64,000 nucleotides of DNA from Candidatus Dormiibacterota bacterium (GTDB lineage Bacteria; Chloroflexota; Dormibacteria; Aeolococcales; Aeolococcaceae). The DNA lies in NCBI GenBank assembly GCA_003162415.1, contig PMOL01000017.1, positions 34,532 through 98,531 of the forward strand. Direction: 5' to 3'. Below the pieces are notes generated by a model. That model was given only the letters and a program-made list of their open reading frames with translations. It was not told the DNA's origin and made no database searches. A program made the translations under genes and the position numbers. This document shows, piece by piece, positions 1,768-22,028 of this stretch (its first letter is position 1; each line of letters opens with the position of its first letter).

Positions 1768-2520
1768 TCAGCGCCGGAAGATCCGCTGAAGAACGACGAT
1801 CGACACTTCGTAGAGCAGCAGCAGCGGGATTGCGAGCAGCGTCGGTGTGAACGGATCAGCACCGGGCGTGATCACCAGGGACACGATGATGATCCCGACG
1901 TAGGCGATCTTCCGCCAGCCCTTGAGCTTTTTCGAGGAGACGAACCCGAGCAGGCCGAGCAGGACGATCACCACGGGCATCTCGAATGTCGCTCCGAAGA
2001 TGAACACGATGATCAGGAAGAACCCGATGTACGAGTTGATGTCGGGGAAATAGACGGCGTGCCCGTTGAGGAAGTTGGTCAGGAAGCTGAGCCCGATGGG
2101 CATCACGAAATAGGCGAACGCGGCTCCGGCGGCGAAGAGCAGGAGTGCGCTGGCGATGAACGGCCCGACGAACTTCCGCTCTTTCGGACGCAACCCCGGC
2201 GACACGAAGTTCCAGACCTGCCAGAGCACCACCGGCAGGGCGATGATCAGGCCGACGACGGCCGCGACCTTCAAGGGGACCGTGAGGCCCTCGGTGGGGC
2301 TCGTATAGATCGCCTCGTTGTTGGGGATGATGCTGTGCGAGTTCTTCAGAACGGTCGACAGCGGGTGCAGCAGCACACCGATGAAGAACCCGTTGAAGAC
2401 GAACGCGACGGCCGTTCCGACGATCCAGGCCCCCATCACCCAGATGAGGACCCGTCGCAACTCCTCCAGGTGCTGGACGATCGTCATCCGCCGTTCGTCG
2501 TCGCCAGCCACTCCTTGCAC
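1768..2520 (-). CDS. tatC: twin-arginine translocase subunit TatC
   Basis: [10 protein letters not shown]-terminus followed by six hydrophobic segments. Sits directly downstream of tatA. Alternative start at M12 (nt 2487). Confidence 0.9.
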
Positions 2521-2558
2521 CTTACGTGCCTCCGGTCAGCGCGCGCGTGAGCGGCGCG

Positions 2559-2855
2559 TCAGCCAGAAACGGAAGGCTGGTGCGCGTCAGCCGGGACCGT
2601 CACGGGCTCAGCCGGCTGCACCGGCGCAGGTGCCGGAACGGGTGCGGCAACGGCCTGAACGACTGGAGCCGGCTGAGCCGGAGTCGTGGTCGTGCCCATC
2701 ACCGCGTCATGAGTCTCGGACGAAGCCTTCCGAAACTCGCGAATTCCCTTGCCGATGCCTGCGCCCACGTCGGGCAGCTTTCCCGGCCCCCAGATGATCA
2801 GGATCACCACCAGCACGATGATGATCTCCGGCAGATGTCCGCCTATGAATCCCAT
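2559..2855 (-). CDS. tatA: twin-arginine translocase subunit TatA/E
   Basis: N-terminal TM helix plus amphipathic GPGKLPDVGAGIGKGIREFRKA motif. GGAGG lies upstream of the ATG. Confidence 0.85.
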   Translation of the reverse strand: MGFIGGHLPEIIIVLVVILIIWGPGKLPDVGAGIGKGIREFRKASSETHDAVMGTTTTPAQPAPVVQAVAAPVPAPAPVQPAEPVTVPADAHQPSVSG

Positions 2856-2897
2856 GACAGCCTCCAGTCTAGCACCATTTTTTTACAGCCCCTGAGA

Positions 2898-17217: not shown

Positions 17218-17748
17218 GTGGCTATGGCCGAATCGTCGCCCCCGCTCCGCGTGGTTGGCGCTCCAGATCGCCAGAGCGACTGGGAGTCCGTCTACCAGGA
17301 GCACGTGGCTCCCCTCTATCGATATGTCTACTCAAGAACCGGCAACACCCCGGATGCCGAGGACGTGACCTCGACCACCTTCCTCCGTGCGTTGCCGCGC
17401 CTCCGCTCCGACGTCTCCGCGGGAGAGATCGGCGCCTACCTGCGGACCACGGCACGCAGCGTGCTCGCCGATGTCTGGCGGCAGCGGCACGGGACCGTCC
17501 TCATGGAGTTCGATGAACAGCGCGACGCCGCTGCCACCGCCGAACCGGAGCGTGACGTGGACGTCAGCCCGATTCTCGACGGCCTGCCGGAGAATTATCG
17601 GAGTGTGCTCGAGTTCAGATTCCTCCGGGGGTACTCCATACGGGAAACCGCTGCTGCGATGGGCGTGAGCGTCGCCAACGCCAAGGTGCTGCAACTACGA
17701 GCGCTCCGTCGCGCCGCGGCCACCGGAGTTCGTCATGTCGAAGGCTGA
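17218..17748 (+). CDS. ECF-type RNA polymerase sigma factor
   Basis: Sigma region 2 (APLYRYVYSRTGNTPDAEDVTSTTF) and region 4 HTH (YSIRETAAAMGVSVANAKVLQLRA). GTG start. Confidence 0.85.
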   Translation: MAMAESSPPLRVVGAPDRQSDWESVYQEHVAPLYRYVYSRTGNTPDAEDVTSTTFLRALPRLRSDVSAGEIGAYLRTTARSVLADVWRQRHGTVLMEFDEQRDAAATAEPERDVDVSPILDGLPENYRSVLEFRFLRGYSIRETAAAMGVSVANAKVLQLRALRRAAATGVRHVEG

Positions 17749-18409
17749 TCGCCGCCTCACGCGTTTCGTCAACGCGCTGATCGCCAACCGGCGACCGCCC
17801 CGGTCGCCCGCCGGTGATGATTCCGCGGCGATGCAGGTTGCGACGCGCCTTCGGGCGGCGCATCCGGGTGGCTCCACGCCGTCGCCGGCATTCGTCGACA
17901 ACCTTGCCCGGCAGCTGCGCGAGGCGCCCGCCCACGATCCTGATTGGACGGAGGCGGGCATCCGGCGCCGCCGGTTCCTGGTCGGGGGGCTTGCGGCGGT
18001 GGCTGCGTCGGTGGCGGGCGGTGTCGCTCTCGACCGCGTCGCCGAGGCGCTCAACGAACCGGCCAGTGGCGGCGGAACGATCCAGCCGTACATCAGCACC
18101 TGGGTCGCGGTCGCAACCCTGGCCGAGGTGACTCCCGGGAAGATCAAGCAATTCGCCGCAGGTGGCATCCAGGGGGTGGTCTTCACCCTTGACGGCAAGA
18201 TCCGTGGCCTCAGCGCGGTGTGCACCCACCAGGGATGCACGCTGATCCCCCAGGCCGCGCAGAAGCGGCTGGTCTGCCCCTGCCACCCGATGAGCTTCAA
18301 CCTCACCGGAGCAGCCAACCCGGGCGACTATCGTCTGAATCCGCTCCCGGCGATCGAGACGCGGGTCACTCTAGACAGCGTCGAGGTGCGCGTCCCCAAC
18401 TGGACCTGA
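17735..18409 (+). CDS. membrane protein with cytoplasmic N-domain, twin-Arg/TM segment and extracytoplasmic Rieske [2Fe-2S] domain (candidate anti-sigma)
   Basis: Overlaps the sigma gene by 14 nt. RRRRFLVGGLAAVAASVAGG sits at about aa 85. Rieske boxes CTHQGC and CPCH are present. Confidence 0.8.
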   Translation: MSKADRRLTRFVNALIANRRPPRSPAGDDSAAMQVATRLRAAHPGGSTPSPAFVDNLARQLREAPAHDPDWTEAGIRRRRFLVGGLAAVAASVAGGVALDRVAEALNEPASGGGTIQPYISTWVAVATLAEVTPGKIKQFAAGGIQGVVFTLDGKIRGLSAVCTHQGCTLIPQAAQKRLVCPCHPMSFNLTGAANPGDYRLNPLPAIETRVTLDSVEVRVPNWT

Positions 18410-18550
18410 GGCTCGACCCTCGCGACCGGTGATGCGACCGGTGCGGCGAGGCAGTGATCCGGTGCTCTGAGCCGTGCGTACCAAGCGGTGACGGAGCGGT
18501 GACAAGACGGCCAACCGGATCGCCAACGACCGCCCCAGAGAGGTGTACAC

Positions 18551-18820
18551 ATGGCCAAGGTGACACGGCGGACGTTTCTGTCCACTACGGTGGGGGCAGC
18601 GGGCGGGGTCGCGGCGATGGGGCTGATCGCCGGGCCGAGCACCCTCGTGGAGGCGGCTCAGAACGTCGCCGAAGCGAGTGACGGTCCGATGTCGGGTGAG
18701 CCGATGACCGCATACGTTCGCGATGCGGCGACCGGCGAGATCTCTGTGATGGTCGGCCATCGCGAGGTCGTGACCAAGGACCCGCAGCTCATCCGGCGTC
18801 TTCAGCGCGCAGCGCGCTGA
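18551..18820 (+). CDS. 89-aa protein with twin-arginine signal peptide
   Basis: MAKVTRRTFLSTTVGAAGGVAAMGLIAG..VEAAQ is a Tat-type leader. Lies 43 nt upstream of the DUF4331 gene. Confidence 0.55.
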   Translation: MAKVTRRTFLSTTVGAAGGVAAMGLIAGPSTLVEAAQNVAEASDGPMSGEPMTAYVRDAATGEISVMVGHREVVTKDPQLIRRLQRAAR

Positions 18821-18863
18821 CGCGCCCACCACAACAGCATTCACAACCTCACGAGGGTTAACC

Positions 18864-20243
18864 ATGTCTTCGCATCGTGAAGCGCCGGGAATCTCGAAAG
18901 ACCCGGTTGCTGACAGTACTGACCTTTACGCGTTCACCAGCCCAGATAGTCCCGGCACGGTGACGCTGATCGCCAACTACATCCCACTTGAGGGACCGGA
19001 CGGCGGACCGAACTTCTACAACTTCGGCGACGACGTCCTGTACGAGATCACCGTCACCAACGGCGGCACCGTGGCGGACGCGATCACCTACCAGTTCCAG
19101 TTCACCACCGAATACACCGACCCGAACACCTTCCTGTACAACACGGGTCCGATCACCAGCCTGACCAGCTCGAGCTGGAACGTCCGCCAGTTCTACTCGG
19201 TGACCCGGATCAAGCAGGGCAATGCGGAAGTGCTCGCCAGCAGGCTCGCGTGCCCGCCTGTCAACGTCGGCGTGCGCTCCACACCGAACTACAGTGCACT
19301 GGCGCAGGCGGCGGTTCACTCGCTCGACGGCGGGTGGGTCTTCGCAGGCCAGCGGCGCGAGGGCTTCTACGTCGACCTGGGGTCGATCTTCGACCTTGGC
19401 GTGCTGCGTCCCTTCCAGAACGCCCATCTCATCCCACTGCCCGCGGTCGGTGGCGTCGATTCGACCAAGCAACTCAACGTTCACACGATCGCAATCCAGA
19501 TCCCCAAGACCCATCTCACCAGGAACGGCGCGATGCCGACCGACCCGACGAGTGCCGACTCGGTCATCGGCGTCTACACGACGGCCAGCCGGCGCAAGTC
19601 GACGGTGCTCGAGCACGGTGGTCACACGATGGACGTCGGTCCCTGGGTCCAGGTGTCACGCCTCGGCATGCCCCTGGTGAACGAGGTCGTCATCCCGATC
19701 GGCAAGAAGGACTTCTGGAATTCGACCAAGCCCAAGGACGATGCGCAGTTCGTGGCCAACTACGCTCATCCTGAGCTTGCCGGACTGTTGCCGGTGCTCT
19801 ACCCGGGCGTCTTCCCGCACCTCGCCGCCTACACGCCCGCACGCGTCGACCTCGAGGCGATCCTGCTCACCGGCATCCCGTCGGGGATCATCCCGGGATT
19901 CCAGAACAACACCGGCTCGACGCCGGCCGACCTGTTGCGCCTCAACATGGCGATTCCCCCGGCATCGTCGCCGAGCCTGAACGGCATCCTGGGCGGGGAT
20001 CTCGCCGGGTTCCCGAACGGCCGCCGGGTGTTCGACGATGTGGCCACCATCGAGATCCGCGCCATCGCCGGCGCGACCATCCCGCTGGTTGACCCGAGCT
20101 TCACGCCTGACGGCGCCGCGGGCGCGGTCAGCGACTTCTCGGCCGCTCAGTTCAGCAGAGGGTCGGTGCCCGGCAATGGCCGGTACATCAACCACTTCCC
20201 GTACCTGGGCACGCCGCTCAACGGATTCGACACCCCGAGTTGA
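18864..20243 (+). CDS. DUF4331 domain protein (no own signal peptide)
   Basis: Begins directly with the family hallmark SSHREAPGISKDPVADSTDLYAF. 459 aa. GAGGG lies upstream of the ATG. Confidence 0.85.
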   Translation: MSSHREAPGISKDPVADSTDLYAFTSPDSPGTVTLIANYIPLEGPDGGPNFYNFGDDVLYEITVTNGGTVADAITYQFQFTTEYTDPNTFLYNTGPITSLTSSSWNVRQFYSVTRIKQGNAEVLASRLACPPVNVGVRSTPNYSALAQAAVHSLDGGWVFAGQRREGFYVDLGSIFDLGVLRPFQNAHLIPLPAVGGVDSTKQLNVHTIAIQIPKTHLTRNGAMPTDPTSADSVIGVYTTASRRKSTVLEHGGHTMDVGPWVQVSRLGMPLVNEVVIPIGKKDFWNSTKPKDDAQFVANYAHPELAGLLPVLYPGVFPHLAAYTPARVDLEAILLTGIPSGIIPGFQNNTGSTPADLLRLNMAIPPASSPSLNGILGGDLAGFPNGRRVFDDVATIEIRAIAGATIPLVDPSFTPDGAAGAVSDFSAAQFSRGSVPGNGRYINHFPYLGTPLNGFDTPS

Positions 20244-20554
20244 ACGCGATCGAGTCCGCCGGTCCCGCTCCCAGCGGGCCGGCGGTCCTCGACATCGGTG
20301 GGGGGACTGGGGCGCTACTGGTGATCGTGCCCGCAGCGCTCCTCCGCACCGAGATCGAGGTCAGCCCGGCTGGGCGGCACGACGGCCGAACGCACACCGG
20401 CGTGCACGAGCGCCCGATGTCCGGTAGCCGGCTCCCCGTCGCGCTCTTTCCGTCTCTCGAAACCGGGACATGGACCCTCTGGGGGTATGGTCCGTGCACC
20501 ACTCGAACCGTCGAGATTCTGGACGGCGAGGTCACCCGGTTGGACTGGCGCTGA
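20240..20554 (+). CDS. small hypothetical protein (predicted beta-rich)
   Basis: The TTG start overlaps the DUF4331 stop (TTGA). LDIGGGTGALLVIVP..EIEVSP..GTWTLW pattern. I recognise no family. Confidence 0.5.
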   Translation: MNAIESAGPAPSGPAVLDIGGGTGALLVIVPAALLRTEIEVSPAGRHDGRTHTGVHERPMSGSRLPVALFPSLETGTWTLWGYGPCTTRTVEILDGEVTRLDWR

Positions 20555-20561
20555 CGTTCGC

Positions 20562-20591
20562 TTGACGGTCCCCAGGGTTTGCGTCTACCGT
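20562..20591 (+). promoter_or_regulatory. candidate sigma-70-type promoter of the aminotransferase-ALDH-permease operon
   Basis: TTGACG (20562-20567), an 18-nt spacer, then TACCGT (TAnnnT) at 20586-20591. About 65 nt upstream of the ATG at 20658. Confidence 0.3.
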
Positions 20592-20597
20592 AGCCTG

Positions 20598-20620
20598 ATT
20601 CTACAGGCGTTCAGTAGAAT
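20598..20620. promoter_or_regulatory. AT-rich perfect inverted repeat, candidate operator
   Basis: ATTCTAC-N9-GTAGAAT immediately downstream of the candidate -10. Locally AT-rich within a GC-rich genome. Confidence 0.35.
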
Positions 20621-20657
20621 TTCTGCATCCGCACGAGCTGCTGGAGGGACCTTGTCG

Positions 20658-22028
20658 ATGGGCTTGAGCTTGGGTGACGTCGATTCGGAACGGGTCGCAT
20701 CGCTGACCGCCCGCGAGGAATTCGATTTCCGTTCCCGACGGACGCGTTCGCGCGAGCTGTGGAAGGAGGCAACCGAGTACATCCCGCGCGGGGTGCCCAG
20801 CTCCTTCCAGGACACGCCGCCGCAACCGGTGTTCATCGATCACGGGAAGGGGAGCCGCGTCTGGGACGTCGACGGCAACGAGTACGTCGATTTTCACAAC
20901 GGATTCGGGGTCATGGTGGTGGGCCATGCCCACCCGGCGATCGTCGCGGCGGTCGAATCACAGATCCACCGCGGATCCCACTTCGCGCAGCCGGTGGCCG
21001 AGAACATCGTCGTCGCGCGCGAGCTGGCGCGCAGATTCCAGCAGCCGCAATGGCGCTTCACCAACAGCGGCACCGAGTCCACCCTCGACGCGATCCGTCT
21101 GGCGCGCGGATTCACCGATCGCGAGCGGATCATCAAGATCGAGGCGTCGTACCACGGGCACCACGATGCCCTGCTCGTCTCGGTGGAACCACCCGTTGAT
21201 GCCATGGGTGATGCCGACTTCCCGAATTCGGTGCCGATGACCGGCGGCATCCCCAAGTCCACCGTTGAGCTCACGACCGTGGTGGGATTCAACGACCTGG
21301 CATCGCTGGAGCGTGCCTTCGCTGCACACCCCGGCGAGGTGGCGGCCGTGATCGTCGAGCCGGCGATGATGAACATCGGGTTCGTGCTCCCCGAGGAGGG
21401 CTACCTCGCCGGTCTCGTCGAGACCGCGCATCGCCACGGAGCGGTGGCGATCTTCGACGAGGTCAAGACCGGGGTGACCATCGCGCCTGGCGGCGCCACC
21501 GAGCGGTTCGCGGTCGTTCCTGACATCGTCTGTCTGGCAAAGGCGATCGGCGGGGGGCTCCCCTGCGGCGCGGTCGGCGGACGCGCCGACATCATGGCGA
21601 CGATCAGCGACGGCAAGGTCGCCCAGCTCGGCACCTTCAACGGCAATCCGCTGACCACCGCGGCGTCACGGGCAACCCTGCTCGAGGTGCTCACCGGACA
21701 GGCCTACTCGCACCTCGACGCCCTCACCGAGGAGTTGAGTGGCGGGCTGCGCGATGTGATGTCGGAGTACAGCCTGCCCTTCCACGTCGTCTCGATGGGC
21801 GCGCGCGGCTGCGTCACCTACCGTGAGGAGCCGGTTCGCAACTACCGCGACTACGCGGCGATGGACAAGTCACTCGCGTATGTGTCATGGCTGTACCAGA
21901 CCAACCGCGGCGTCCTGATGGCGCCCGGAGCCGAGGAGAACTGGACTCTGTCGGTGCAGCATTCGTCCGACGACGTGAAGCGCTACGTTGCCAACTTCCG
22001 CGAGCTGGCGCGGGACCTGAAGGCATGA
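20658..22028 (+). CDS. class-III PLP aminotransferase (GSA-aminomutase-like paralogue)
   Basis: The ATG at 20658 follows GGAGGGA. FDEVKTGVTIA and AKAIGGGLPCGAVGG motifs. ATGA coupling to the ALDH gene. Confidence 0.85.
   Translation: MGLSLGDVDSERVASLTAREEFDFRSRRTRSRELWKEATEYIPRGVPSSFQDTPPQPVFIDHGKGSRVWDVDGNEYVDFHNGFGVMVVGHAHPAIVAAVESQIHRGSHFAQPVAENIVVARELARRFQQPQWRFTNSGTESTLDAIRLARGFTDRERIIKIEASYHGHHDALLVSVEPPVDAMGDADFPNSVPMTGGIPKSTVELTTVVGFNDLASLERAFAAHPGEVAAVIVEPAMMNIGFVLPEEGYLAGLVETAHRHGAVAIFDEVKTGVTIAPGGATERFAVVPDIVCLAKAIGGGLPCGAVGGRADIMATISDGKVAQLGTFNGNPLTTAASRATLLEVLTGQAYSHLDALTEELSGGLRDVMSEYSLPFHVVSMGARGCVTYREEPVRNYRDYAAMDKSLAYVSWLYQTNRGVLMAPGAEENWTLSVQHSSDDVKRYVANFRELARDLKA

Follow-up and report, generated by a model that had tools for sequence, protein, structure and literature searches.

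A mini-protein with a twin-arginine signal as the probable export partner of leaderless DUF4331 proteins

The sequence described here is a stretch of 64,000 nucleotides (nt) from a Candidatus Dormiibacterota bacterium of peat or soil (contig PMOL01000017.1 of assembly GCA_003162415.1, positions 34,532 to 98,531 of the forward strand), the whole of which we call the window. It contains a run of three plus-strand genes – referred to below as the trio – that begins with a gene for a mini-protein of 89 amino acids (aa) (18551..18820; starting MAKVTRRTFLSTTVGAAGGVAAMGLIAG), continues with a leaderless DUF4331 gene of 459 aa (18864..20243; PF14224 E = 3e-135), the proposed cargo, and ends with a gene of 104 aa (20240..20554) whose TTG start overlaps the DUF4331 TGA stop as TTGA. 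The first product has a twin-arginine translocation (Tat) signal and the second begins directly at its conserved core, and a comparison across bacterial and archaeal loci suggests that the mini-protein probably carries the leaderless DUF4331 across the membrane by Tat hitchhiking. The map of open reading frames (orfs) bears out the initial annotation of this region as regards the three orfs, the Tat leader, the gap behind the mini-protein gene, the in-frame stop and the TTGA overlap.

Residues 1-35 of the mini-protein form a twin-arginine signal peptide, consisting of TRRTFL, an Ala/Gly-rich hydrophobic region (STTVGAAGGVAAMGLIAG) and then VEA↓A, which has the pattern recognized by signal peptidase and at which cleavage is predicted. 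The Tat motif of the window protein, T-R-R-T-F-L-S, agrees with the (S/T)-R-R-x-F-L-K pattern, and the NCBIfam model TAT_signal (TIGR01409) matches with 20.6 bits against a cutoff of 16.7. The predicted cut, after residue 35, leaves a mature part of 54 aa, in which residues 36-49 are a variable linker and residues 50-89 a conserved core, EPMTAYVRDAATGEISVMVGHREVVTKDPQLIRRLQRAAR. A Pfam scan matched the mini-protein to no family. Its sole His is not kept in homologues, which makes it unlike a metallochaperone, and a cofactor-free domain of 40 residues would have no evident need for the Tat pathway unless it carried a folded cargo.

A word-based protein search recovered 69 homologues of the mini-protein, mostly from Dormibacterota; eight distant ones, at 46-49% identity, have the RR motif and the C-terminal core in common with the window protein. 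The family consensus reads lSRRxFL, Ala-rich hydrophobic region, A-x-A in the N-terminal part and ePlVAyVrDaxxGEvtVmvGtrEVtvrDrxLAARLarAAr in the core, and the linker between A-x-A and core is very variable in both length and composition. Of 134 copies, 129 have RR, preceded by S/T at −1 and followed by F at +2 and L at +3 (motif (S/T)RRxFL(K)); an A-x-A site is found in 107 of 129 homologues, and none of the 129 RR-bearing homologues has a lipobox. Searched against the 64-kb window, the family profile gives a single match, to the 18551-18820 orf, and this orf is therefore more than a chance reading frame.

The DUF4331 gene encodes a full-length member of its family: positions 1-421 of the 421 in the PF14224 profile align to residues 2-451, HREAP block included, and the protein begins M-SSHREAP. 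Its start lies 43 nt behind the stop codon of the mini-protein gene, with AGGG eight nt before the ATG. An in-frame stop is located 31 codons upstream, and the sequence from this stop to the start, PRTRSSSGVFSAQRADAPTTTAFTTSRGLT, has neither a start codon nor a hydrophobic segment. The AlphaFold2 model of the protein has a predicted local distance difference test (pLDDT) score of 62 and a beta-rich N-terminal half, with residues 1-14 below 50. A Foldseek comparison of this model with the PDB gave no match below E = 0.3 and no fold was assigned, a PDB sequence search with the mini-protein, DUF4331 and the third protein returned nothing meaningful, and no paper in the literature library that was searched mentions DUF4331.

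The initial annotation had raised the question whether DUF4331 proteins elsewhere have signal peptides of their own, and the answer is that most of the closest ones do. A DUF4331 search over 1.84 billion 50%-identity representatives yielded 5,298 relatives at E up to 0.001, and the best 150 of these (P0190-P0339) were used for leader analysis. Leaders of 11-57 aa (median 30) are present in 87 of the 150, and 29 begin MSSH. In the 87 leader-bearing proteins, the residue at −1 – three before the His of SSHREAP – is A in 78, G in six, S in two and T in one; at −3, five residues ahead of the His, A, V, T, G, S or L occurs. Small residues at −1 and −3 are the classical signal peptidase pattern, so that a mature N-terminus of (S/A/T)-S-H-R-E-A-P is predicted in 87/87, with cleavage exactly two residues before the invariant His. 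Only five of the 87 leaders contain RRxhh, P0195 and the locus L092 being clear Tat-type examples in addition to these, and most leaders are predicted to be of the general secretory (Sec) type; from the presence of Tat-type (RRxFL) leaders, at least some DUF4331 proteins appear to be Tat-targeted. Judged by these predicted leaders, DUF4331 is normally an exported protein.

The leader-bearing and leaderless proteins form two classes that part almost cleanly, with two Fitch changes, in a neighbour-joining tree of 255 DUF4331 sequences. A cluster look-up of the leader-bearing class returned one name only, Dehalococcoidia bacterium, and with a single taxon name we do not claim a simple division between monoderms and diderms. 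The classes differ within the protein as well. Residues ~317-326, 340-350 and 409-439 of the window DUF4331 are conserved in the leaderless class and mostly missing from the leader-bearing class, with F317, L320, F346, T350 and D416 as class-specific residues, and these segments are candidates for a surface on which the mini-protein docks. Methionine aminopeptidase removes the initiator Met before Ser; its action on the leaderless DUF4331 would give a Ser-Ser-His N-terminus, the same as that of the cleaved leader-bearing forms.

Co-occurrence of the mini-protein with leaderless DUF4331 was examined in 80 genome loci from species-representative genomes, fetched with the DUF4331 alignment, and all 80 of their DUF4331 genes start (M/V)(S/T)SHREAP. 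The loci are from Actinomycetota (Solirubrobacterales, Nocardioides, Kribbella, Micromonospora, Actinoplanes, Streptomyces and Acidimicrobiia), Chloroflexota, Dormibacterota and three archaeal metagenome-assembled genomes (Bathyarchaeota L041 and L055; Nitrososphaerales L053). In all but one of the 80 (79/80), the mini-protein profile finds exactly one match, always same-strand and ending just before DUF4331. As a control, 80 metagenome loci were fetched with a leader-bearing query, of which 23 are leader-bearing and about 55 leaderless; among those with at least 330 nt upstream, the mini-protein gene lies upstream in 53/53 leaderless loci (50 classed automatically, and three flagged 'unclear' only for a chance hydrophobic run in the upstream frame) versus 0/22 leader-bearing loci. 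One match in a leader-bearing locus, L106, proved to be due to the Tat signal encoded by an unrelated opposite-strand gene. Genome and metagenome loci together have a mini-protein homologue directly upstream and on the same strand in 132 of 133 leaderless cases; absence from orthologous loci, which the initial annotation had named as evidence against an escort, is thus confined to one locus. The gene order persists among remote relatives. All three contigs of distant mini-protein homologues have the mini-protein gene followed by DUF4331, amid unrelated flanking genes; two of them have a gene of 105-117 aa after DUF4331, and in the third (L004) DUF4331 is called in pieces, within which third-protein matches are found.

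A signal-bearing orf followed by DUF4331 mimics a split pre-protein, and one might read the two orfs as a single gene for an ordinary Tat pre-protein, divided by a frameshift, a sequencing error or read-through. This is hardly credible given 134 non-redundant loci with separate orfs and stops between them, at gaps that range from −17 to +189 nt and are ≤6 nt in about a third. The start codon of DUF4331 always stands directly before (S/T)SH, in the window the second orf is in another frame than the first and is preceded by a ribosome-binding site, and no fused mini-protein–DUF4331 protein occurs among 271 proteins. Two weak profile matches that looked like fusions, P0204 and P0298, align only through their own Tat-like leaders.

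The two genes are co-transcribed. Metatranscriptome contigs from soil and peat, which derive from close relatives and are at least 90% identical, cross the junction between them at 18742-18947 (X28) and 18773-18941 (X29), and no terminator was found between the genes of the trio. The Tat machinery itself appears among the neighbours of the leaderless class: in a clustering of neighbour orfs with Pfam scans, tatC adjoins six and tatA five leaderless loci, nine distinct loci in all, and neither adjoins any of the 23 leader-bearing loci. The window has a minus-strand tatC at about 1768-2535 (phmmer with TatC of L027, E = 1.2e-31) and a minus-strand tatA at about 2559-2882 (phmmer with TatA of L010, E = 6.6e-15), with coordinates (1768..2882) given stop to stop and query proteins confirmed by Pfam; the organism therefore has a Tat translocase. 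These two genes sit 16 kb upstream of the trio.

From these observations we propose the following route. The trio is one operon, the products of which most likely assemble in the cytoplasm, where DUF4331 would fold and lose its initiator Met to expose Ser-Ser-His. The C-terminal core of the mini-protein, of about 40 residues, would then dock onto DUF4331, and its twin-arginine signal would take the folded complex to TatAC, so that the two cross the membrane together. Signal peptidase probably frees the complex afterwards by cutting at VEA↓A; if this site were left uncut, the complex would stay anchored through the signal on the outside of the membrane. The third protein, a beta-sandwich that is often His-rich, would act as a cytoplasmic assembly or metal-loading factor or travel as a third passenger.

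A different reading of the same genes is that the leaderless DUF4331 has become cytoplasmic and that the mini-protein is an independently exported small protein or anchor, for example a sensor or ligand, with no part in DUF4331 transport. Because the leaderless proteins form one clade, a single loss of the signal might have accompanied a move to another compartment, and the Streptomyces MelD case makes such a change within a family of this kind possible: the MelD1 helpers of S. coelicolor, S. griseus and S. avermitilis are without a Tat motif, and MelD2 of S. coelicolor was demonstrated to be intracellular (PMC2758597). The MelD helper lost its Tat motif, however, whereas the mini-protein keeps its own in 129/134, and an exported domain of 40 residues cannot meet a cytoplasmic partner once it has left. 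In addition, the SSHREAP block is kept exactly as in secreted DUF4331 proteins and tat genes adjoin nine of the loci; we consider a cytoplasmic DUF4331 unlikely.

It is also conceivable that DUF4331 gets out of the cell by some other route, or through lysis, and meets the Tat-exported mini-protein only outside, with the latter serving as an extracellular subunit or, through an uncleaved signal, as a tether. A long and variable linker is what a tether would be expected to have, and cleavage at A-x-A is a prediction only. Nevertheless, DUF4331 has no recognizable alternative export signal, the solution found elsewhere in the family is a classical N-terminal signal, and tight translational coupling together with adjacent tatAC fits joint export better, all of which makes separate export very unlikely. 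Joint export by hitchhiking is the likely reading.

Several observations weigh against joint export. Three mini-protein copies have R-L in place of R-R (the remaining two non-RR copies are cut by a contig end and frameshifted, respectively), and one leaderless genome locus, L039, has no adjacent mini-protein gene, although it lies on a 2.9-kb low-coverage contig with an opposite-strand gene upstream. The lack of any fused form among the 271 proteins counts in the same direction. Most self-signalled relatives use Sec, so DUF4331 has no need for cytoplasmic folding as such. Finally, leaderless and leader-bearing proteins are essentially two clades and their co-occurrence pattern therefore goes back to about one ancient coupling and not to convergence on several occasions. 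For that reason the Fisher p of 2e-19 for the association of leaderless DUF4331 with the mini-protein overstates independence and is descriptive only. The weight of the evidence, as we read the sequences, lies instead in the retention of the coupling down to ~45% identity and across domains, and in the conservation of the Tat motif. The family split and the near-perfect co-occurrence (79/80 genome and 53/53 metagenome loci, 0/22 leader-bearing) together give comparative support to the escort idea that the initial annotation had put forward from a single locus.

The third gene follows the same division of the family. Immediately after the end of DUF4331, a homologue is found in 68 of 75 leaderless loci from genomes and 38 of 43 from metagenomes – on the opposite strand in L009 – and in none of 19 leader-bearing loci. 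The AlphaFold2 model of the window protein is a seven-strand beta-sandwich (pLDDT 81 overall, ~90 over residues 24-104); a signal peptide is absent, and His52 and His56 are conserved. Many copies (among them L024, L025, L026, L031, L033, L037, L048, L050, L060 and L061) are His-rich, some through long inserts such as HGHGHGHGH, HGHGHGHGHGH and HDHDHHGHDHHGH, placed where the window protein has a loop with RTHTGVHERP, and others through His-rich N-termini (MHSHHHHH). Structure matches did not yield a function: the best Foldseek match is a generic beta-sandwich (the carbohydrate-binding module CBM41, E = 0.0097), the others are likewise only generic immunoglobulin-like or carbohydrate-binding-module-like folds, and the copper-binding FtrA-P19 ranks 13th with low probability. 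We favour a cytoplasmic assembly or metal-loading factor, or else a third passenger, as the role of this protein because it is found with the escorted class and not with DUF4331 as such. As listed, a class-III aminotransferase orf (20487-22028, plus strand) extends into the last part of the third gene, but it probably starts farther downstream, for example at an ATG near 20659; similar aminotransferases are present in the flanks of six other loci, not directly adjacent.

The amino-terminal Cu(II)- and Ni(II)-binding (ATCUN) motif calls for a free amine, a His as third residue and a second residue other than Pro. The predicted mature N-terminus of DUF4331, (S/A/T)-S-H in 87/87 leader-bearing proteins, may be of this kind; 29/29 leaderless ones start MSSH, and residues 1-14 of the window model have pLDDT <50. 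The fixed distance of two residues from amine to His suggests, by analogy, an ATCUN- or NikM-like metal site. Among the neighbours, a NicO/NiCoT nickel-transporter gene (PF03824, E = 1.4e-99) adjoins about 14 leaderless loci, including the archaeal L053 as well as L129 and L160, and lies downstream on the same strand in about ten (e.g. L021, L023, L032, L043 and L053). In L109, a leader-bearing locus, genes for DUF4198 and HupE/UreJ_2 immediately precede DUF4331 (L109:1000-2585). These neighbours suggest a link with nickel or cobalt handling.

Taken jointly, the observations allow a tentative reading, which we think rather doubtful, in which DUF4331 is a new extracytoplasmic binder of nickel (or copper/cobalt) with an N-terminal site, exported in trans through Tat by the mini-protein. 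The site could lie on the processed Ser-Ser-His N-terminus and serve permeases of the NiCoT/HupE type, and a metal site there would account for the invariant distance of both the cleavage site and the start codon from the His. Folding in the cytoplasm, perhaps with metal loading by the third protein, could then be the practice in Actinomycetota, Chloroflexota, Dormibacterota and some archaea. If so, the mini-protein would be the smallest natural 'signal peptide in trans' module.

Other neighbours were noted in both classes. Leader-bearing DUF4331 genes are usually followed by a gene for a tetratricopeptide repeat (TPR) protein of ~420 aa with an N-terminal membrane or signal segment, which is found in 13 of 23 loci (among them L104, L164, L153, L092, L106, L113, L119, L143 and L166) and never in leaderless ones. 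A gene of the LPMO_10 family (copper-dependent lytic polysaccharide monooxygenase) is situated near the trio in five leaderless loci, including L165:1616-2590.

Upstream of the trio, the window has an extracytoplasmic function (ECF)-type sigma factor gene of 176 aa (17218..17748, plus strand; Sigma70_r2, r4_2 and Sigma70_ECF matches) and, with a 14-nt overlap, a plus-strand gene for a 224-aa Rieske protein (17735..18409; Rieske PF00355 E = 1.8e-13). The latter has a cytoplasmic N-terminus of ~85 residues, an internal Tat-like RRRFLVGGLAAVAASVAGGVAL (an RRRFLV membrane segment) and an extracytoplasmic C-terminal Rieske [2Fe-2S] domain. Pfam and NCBIfam scans detected no zf-HC2 or other recognized anti-sigma domain in it; it is a candidate anti-sigma factor or sensor, and may be an unusual redox-sensing anti-sigma factor. 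Between the Rieske and mini-protein genes is an intergenic leader and promoter region (18410..18550, plus strand), which was aligned with that of L007, the closest relative (90% identity in DUF4331). The two differ in the first 45 nt behind the Rieske stop, and the ~100 nt before the mini-protein gene (18455-18550) are nearly identical and may be an operator or promoter. This segment contains AGCGGTGAC twice, 11 nt apart (18484-18492 and 18495-18503). An Rfam search of the conserved leader gave no match and detected no NiCo or other riboswitch, and neither a sigma-70 consensus nor an ECF-type promoter was identified before the mini-protein gene.

The initial annotation had further suggested that the trio is the regulon of the adjacent ECF/Rieske pair, a regulatory claim that is compatible with any of the export models. 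The genes are adjacent and co-directional in the window and in L007, and an iterated profile finds some ECF sigma gene within 3-4 kb in the flanks of 33/138 leaderless and 8/23 leader-bearing loci (24-35%), often paired with a zf-HC2/RskA anti-sigma gene; by our estimate, this frequency is several-fold above chance expectation. The Rieske partner, however, adjoins the trio only in the window and L007, and the majority of loci lack a nearby sigma gene. An ECF-type promoter was not identified before the trio, and RNA contig depth – a weak measure – is several times as high over the trio as over the two genes of the pair, with a step up at ~18497 that suggests a separate promoter for the trio. 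A regulon specific to this pair is thus possible, though we lean against it. What stands of the suggestion is a plausible recurrent regulatory link between ECF sigma factors and DUF4331 loci of both classes, though not a general one, and for the window locus itself no more than possible; what does not extend beyond L007 is the adjacency of the pair.

DUF4331 is a large and completely uncharacterised family of over 5,000 50%-identity clusters, and an account of its export is a first step to its function. Signal-peptide predictors will call the leaderless branch cytoplasmic, and such calls skew what is predicted about the secretome and metal homeostasis of Actinomycetota, Chloroflexota and Dormibacterota from soil. 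With its Tat signal, flexible linker and docking domain of 40 residues, the mini-protein would amount to a minimal natural adaptor and could be used in studies of Tat cargo recognition or for the export of folded proteins in trans. The fixed distance from processing site to His, along with the nickel-transporter neighbours, provides an easily checked metal-binding hypothesis for DUF4331.

The closest known parallel is the Streptomyces tyrosinase MelC2, which has no signal and leaves the cell as a hitchhiker, in complex with its Tat-signal helper MelC1 (PMC2758597). The two systems are alike in having a bicistronic operon in which the gene for a small Tat-signal helper comes first and the second product is signal-less, and in the link of the cargo to a metal, which for DUF4331 is conjectural. 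The mini-protein is nevertheless not a MelC1: the MelC1 model (NF047833) gives 15.8 bits where the cutoff is 120, and it aligns only to residues 1-39, that is, to the signal. There is no sequence relationship and no conserved metal-binding motif, the mini-protein in its mature form is roughly half as large as MelC1, and in the DUF4331 system metal handling might be supplied by the separate His-rich third protein. Unlike MelC2, moreover, the cargo family also exists in self-signalled form, and the mini-protein/DUF4331 pair reaches the archaea.

For the putative metal site, the relevant comparison is with NikM, in which adding or inserting one residue at the N-terminus abolishes function and whose site has been compared with the ATCUN motif (PMC3945884). 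NikM/CbiM and ATCUN proteins rely on a free N-terminal amine and an invariant His at a fixed distance from it, and the His of DUF4331 is likewise invariant in position; NikM, however, is a membrane protein with Met1-His2, whereas DUF4331, at about 450 aa, is soluble and would have X-S-His3.

Classical Tat hitchhikers include PaoABC, a ternary complex in which only one subunit has a twin-arginine signal and which crosses the membrane pre-folded (PMC4273604). The small and large subunits of [NiFe] hydrogenases, DmsAB and PaoABC all resemble the pair described here in having one signal-bearing subunit with the others as passengers, but in them the subunit with the signal makes up a sizeable portion of the enzyme and contains a cofactor, whereas the mature mini-protein is a cofactor-free polypeptide of ~54 residues whose only evident job is to carry the signal. 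By analogy with these systems, the mini-protein and DUF4331 would work as a trans-acting Tat hitchhiker pair that lies outside any described family.

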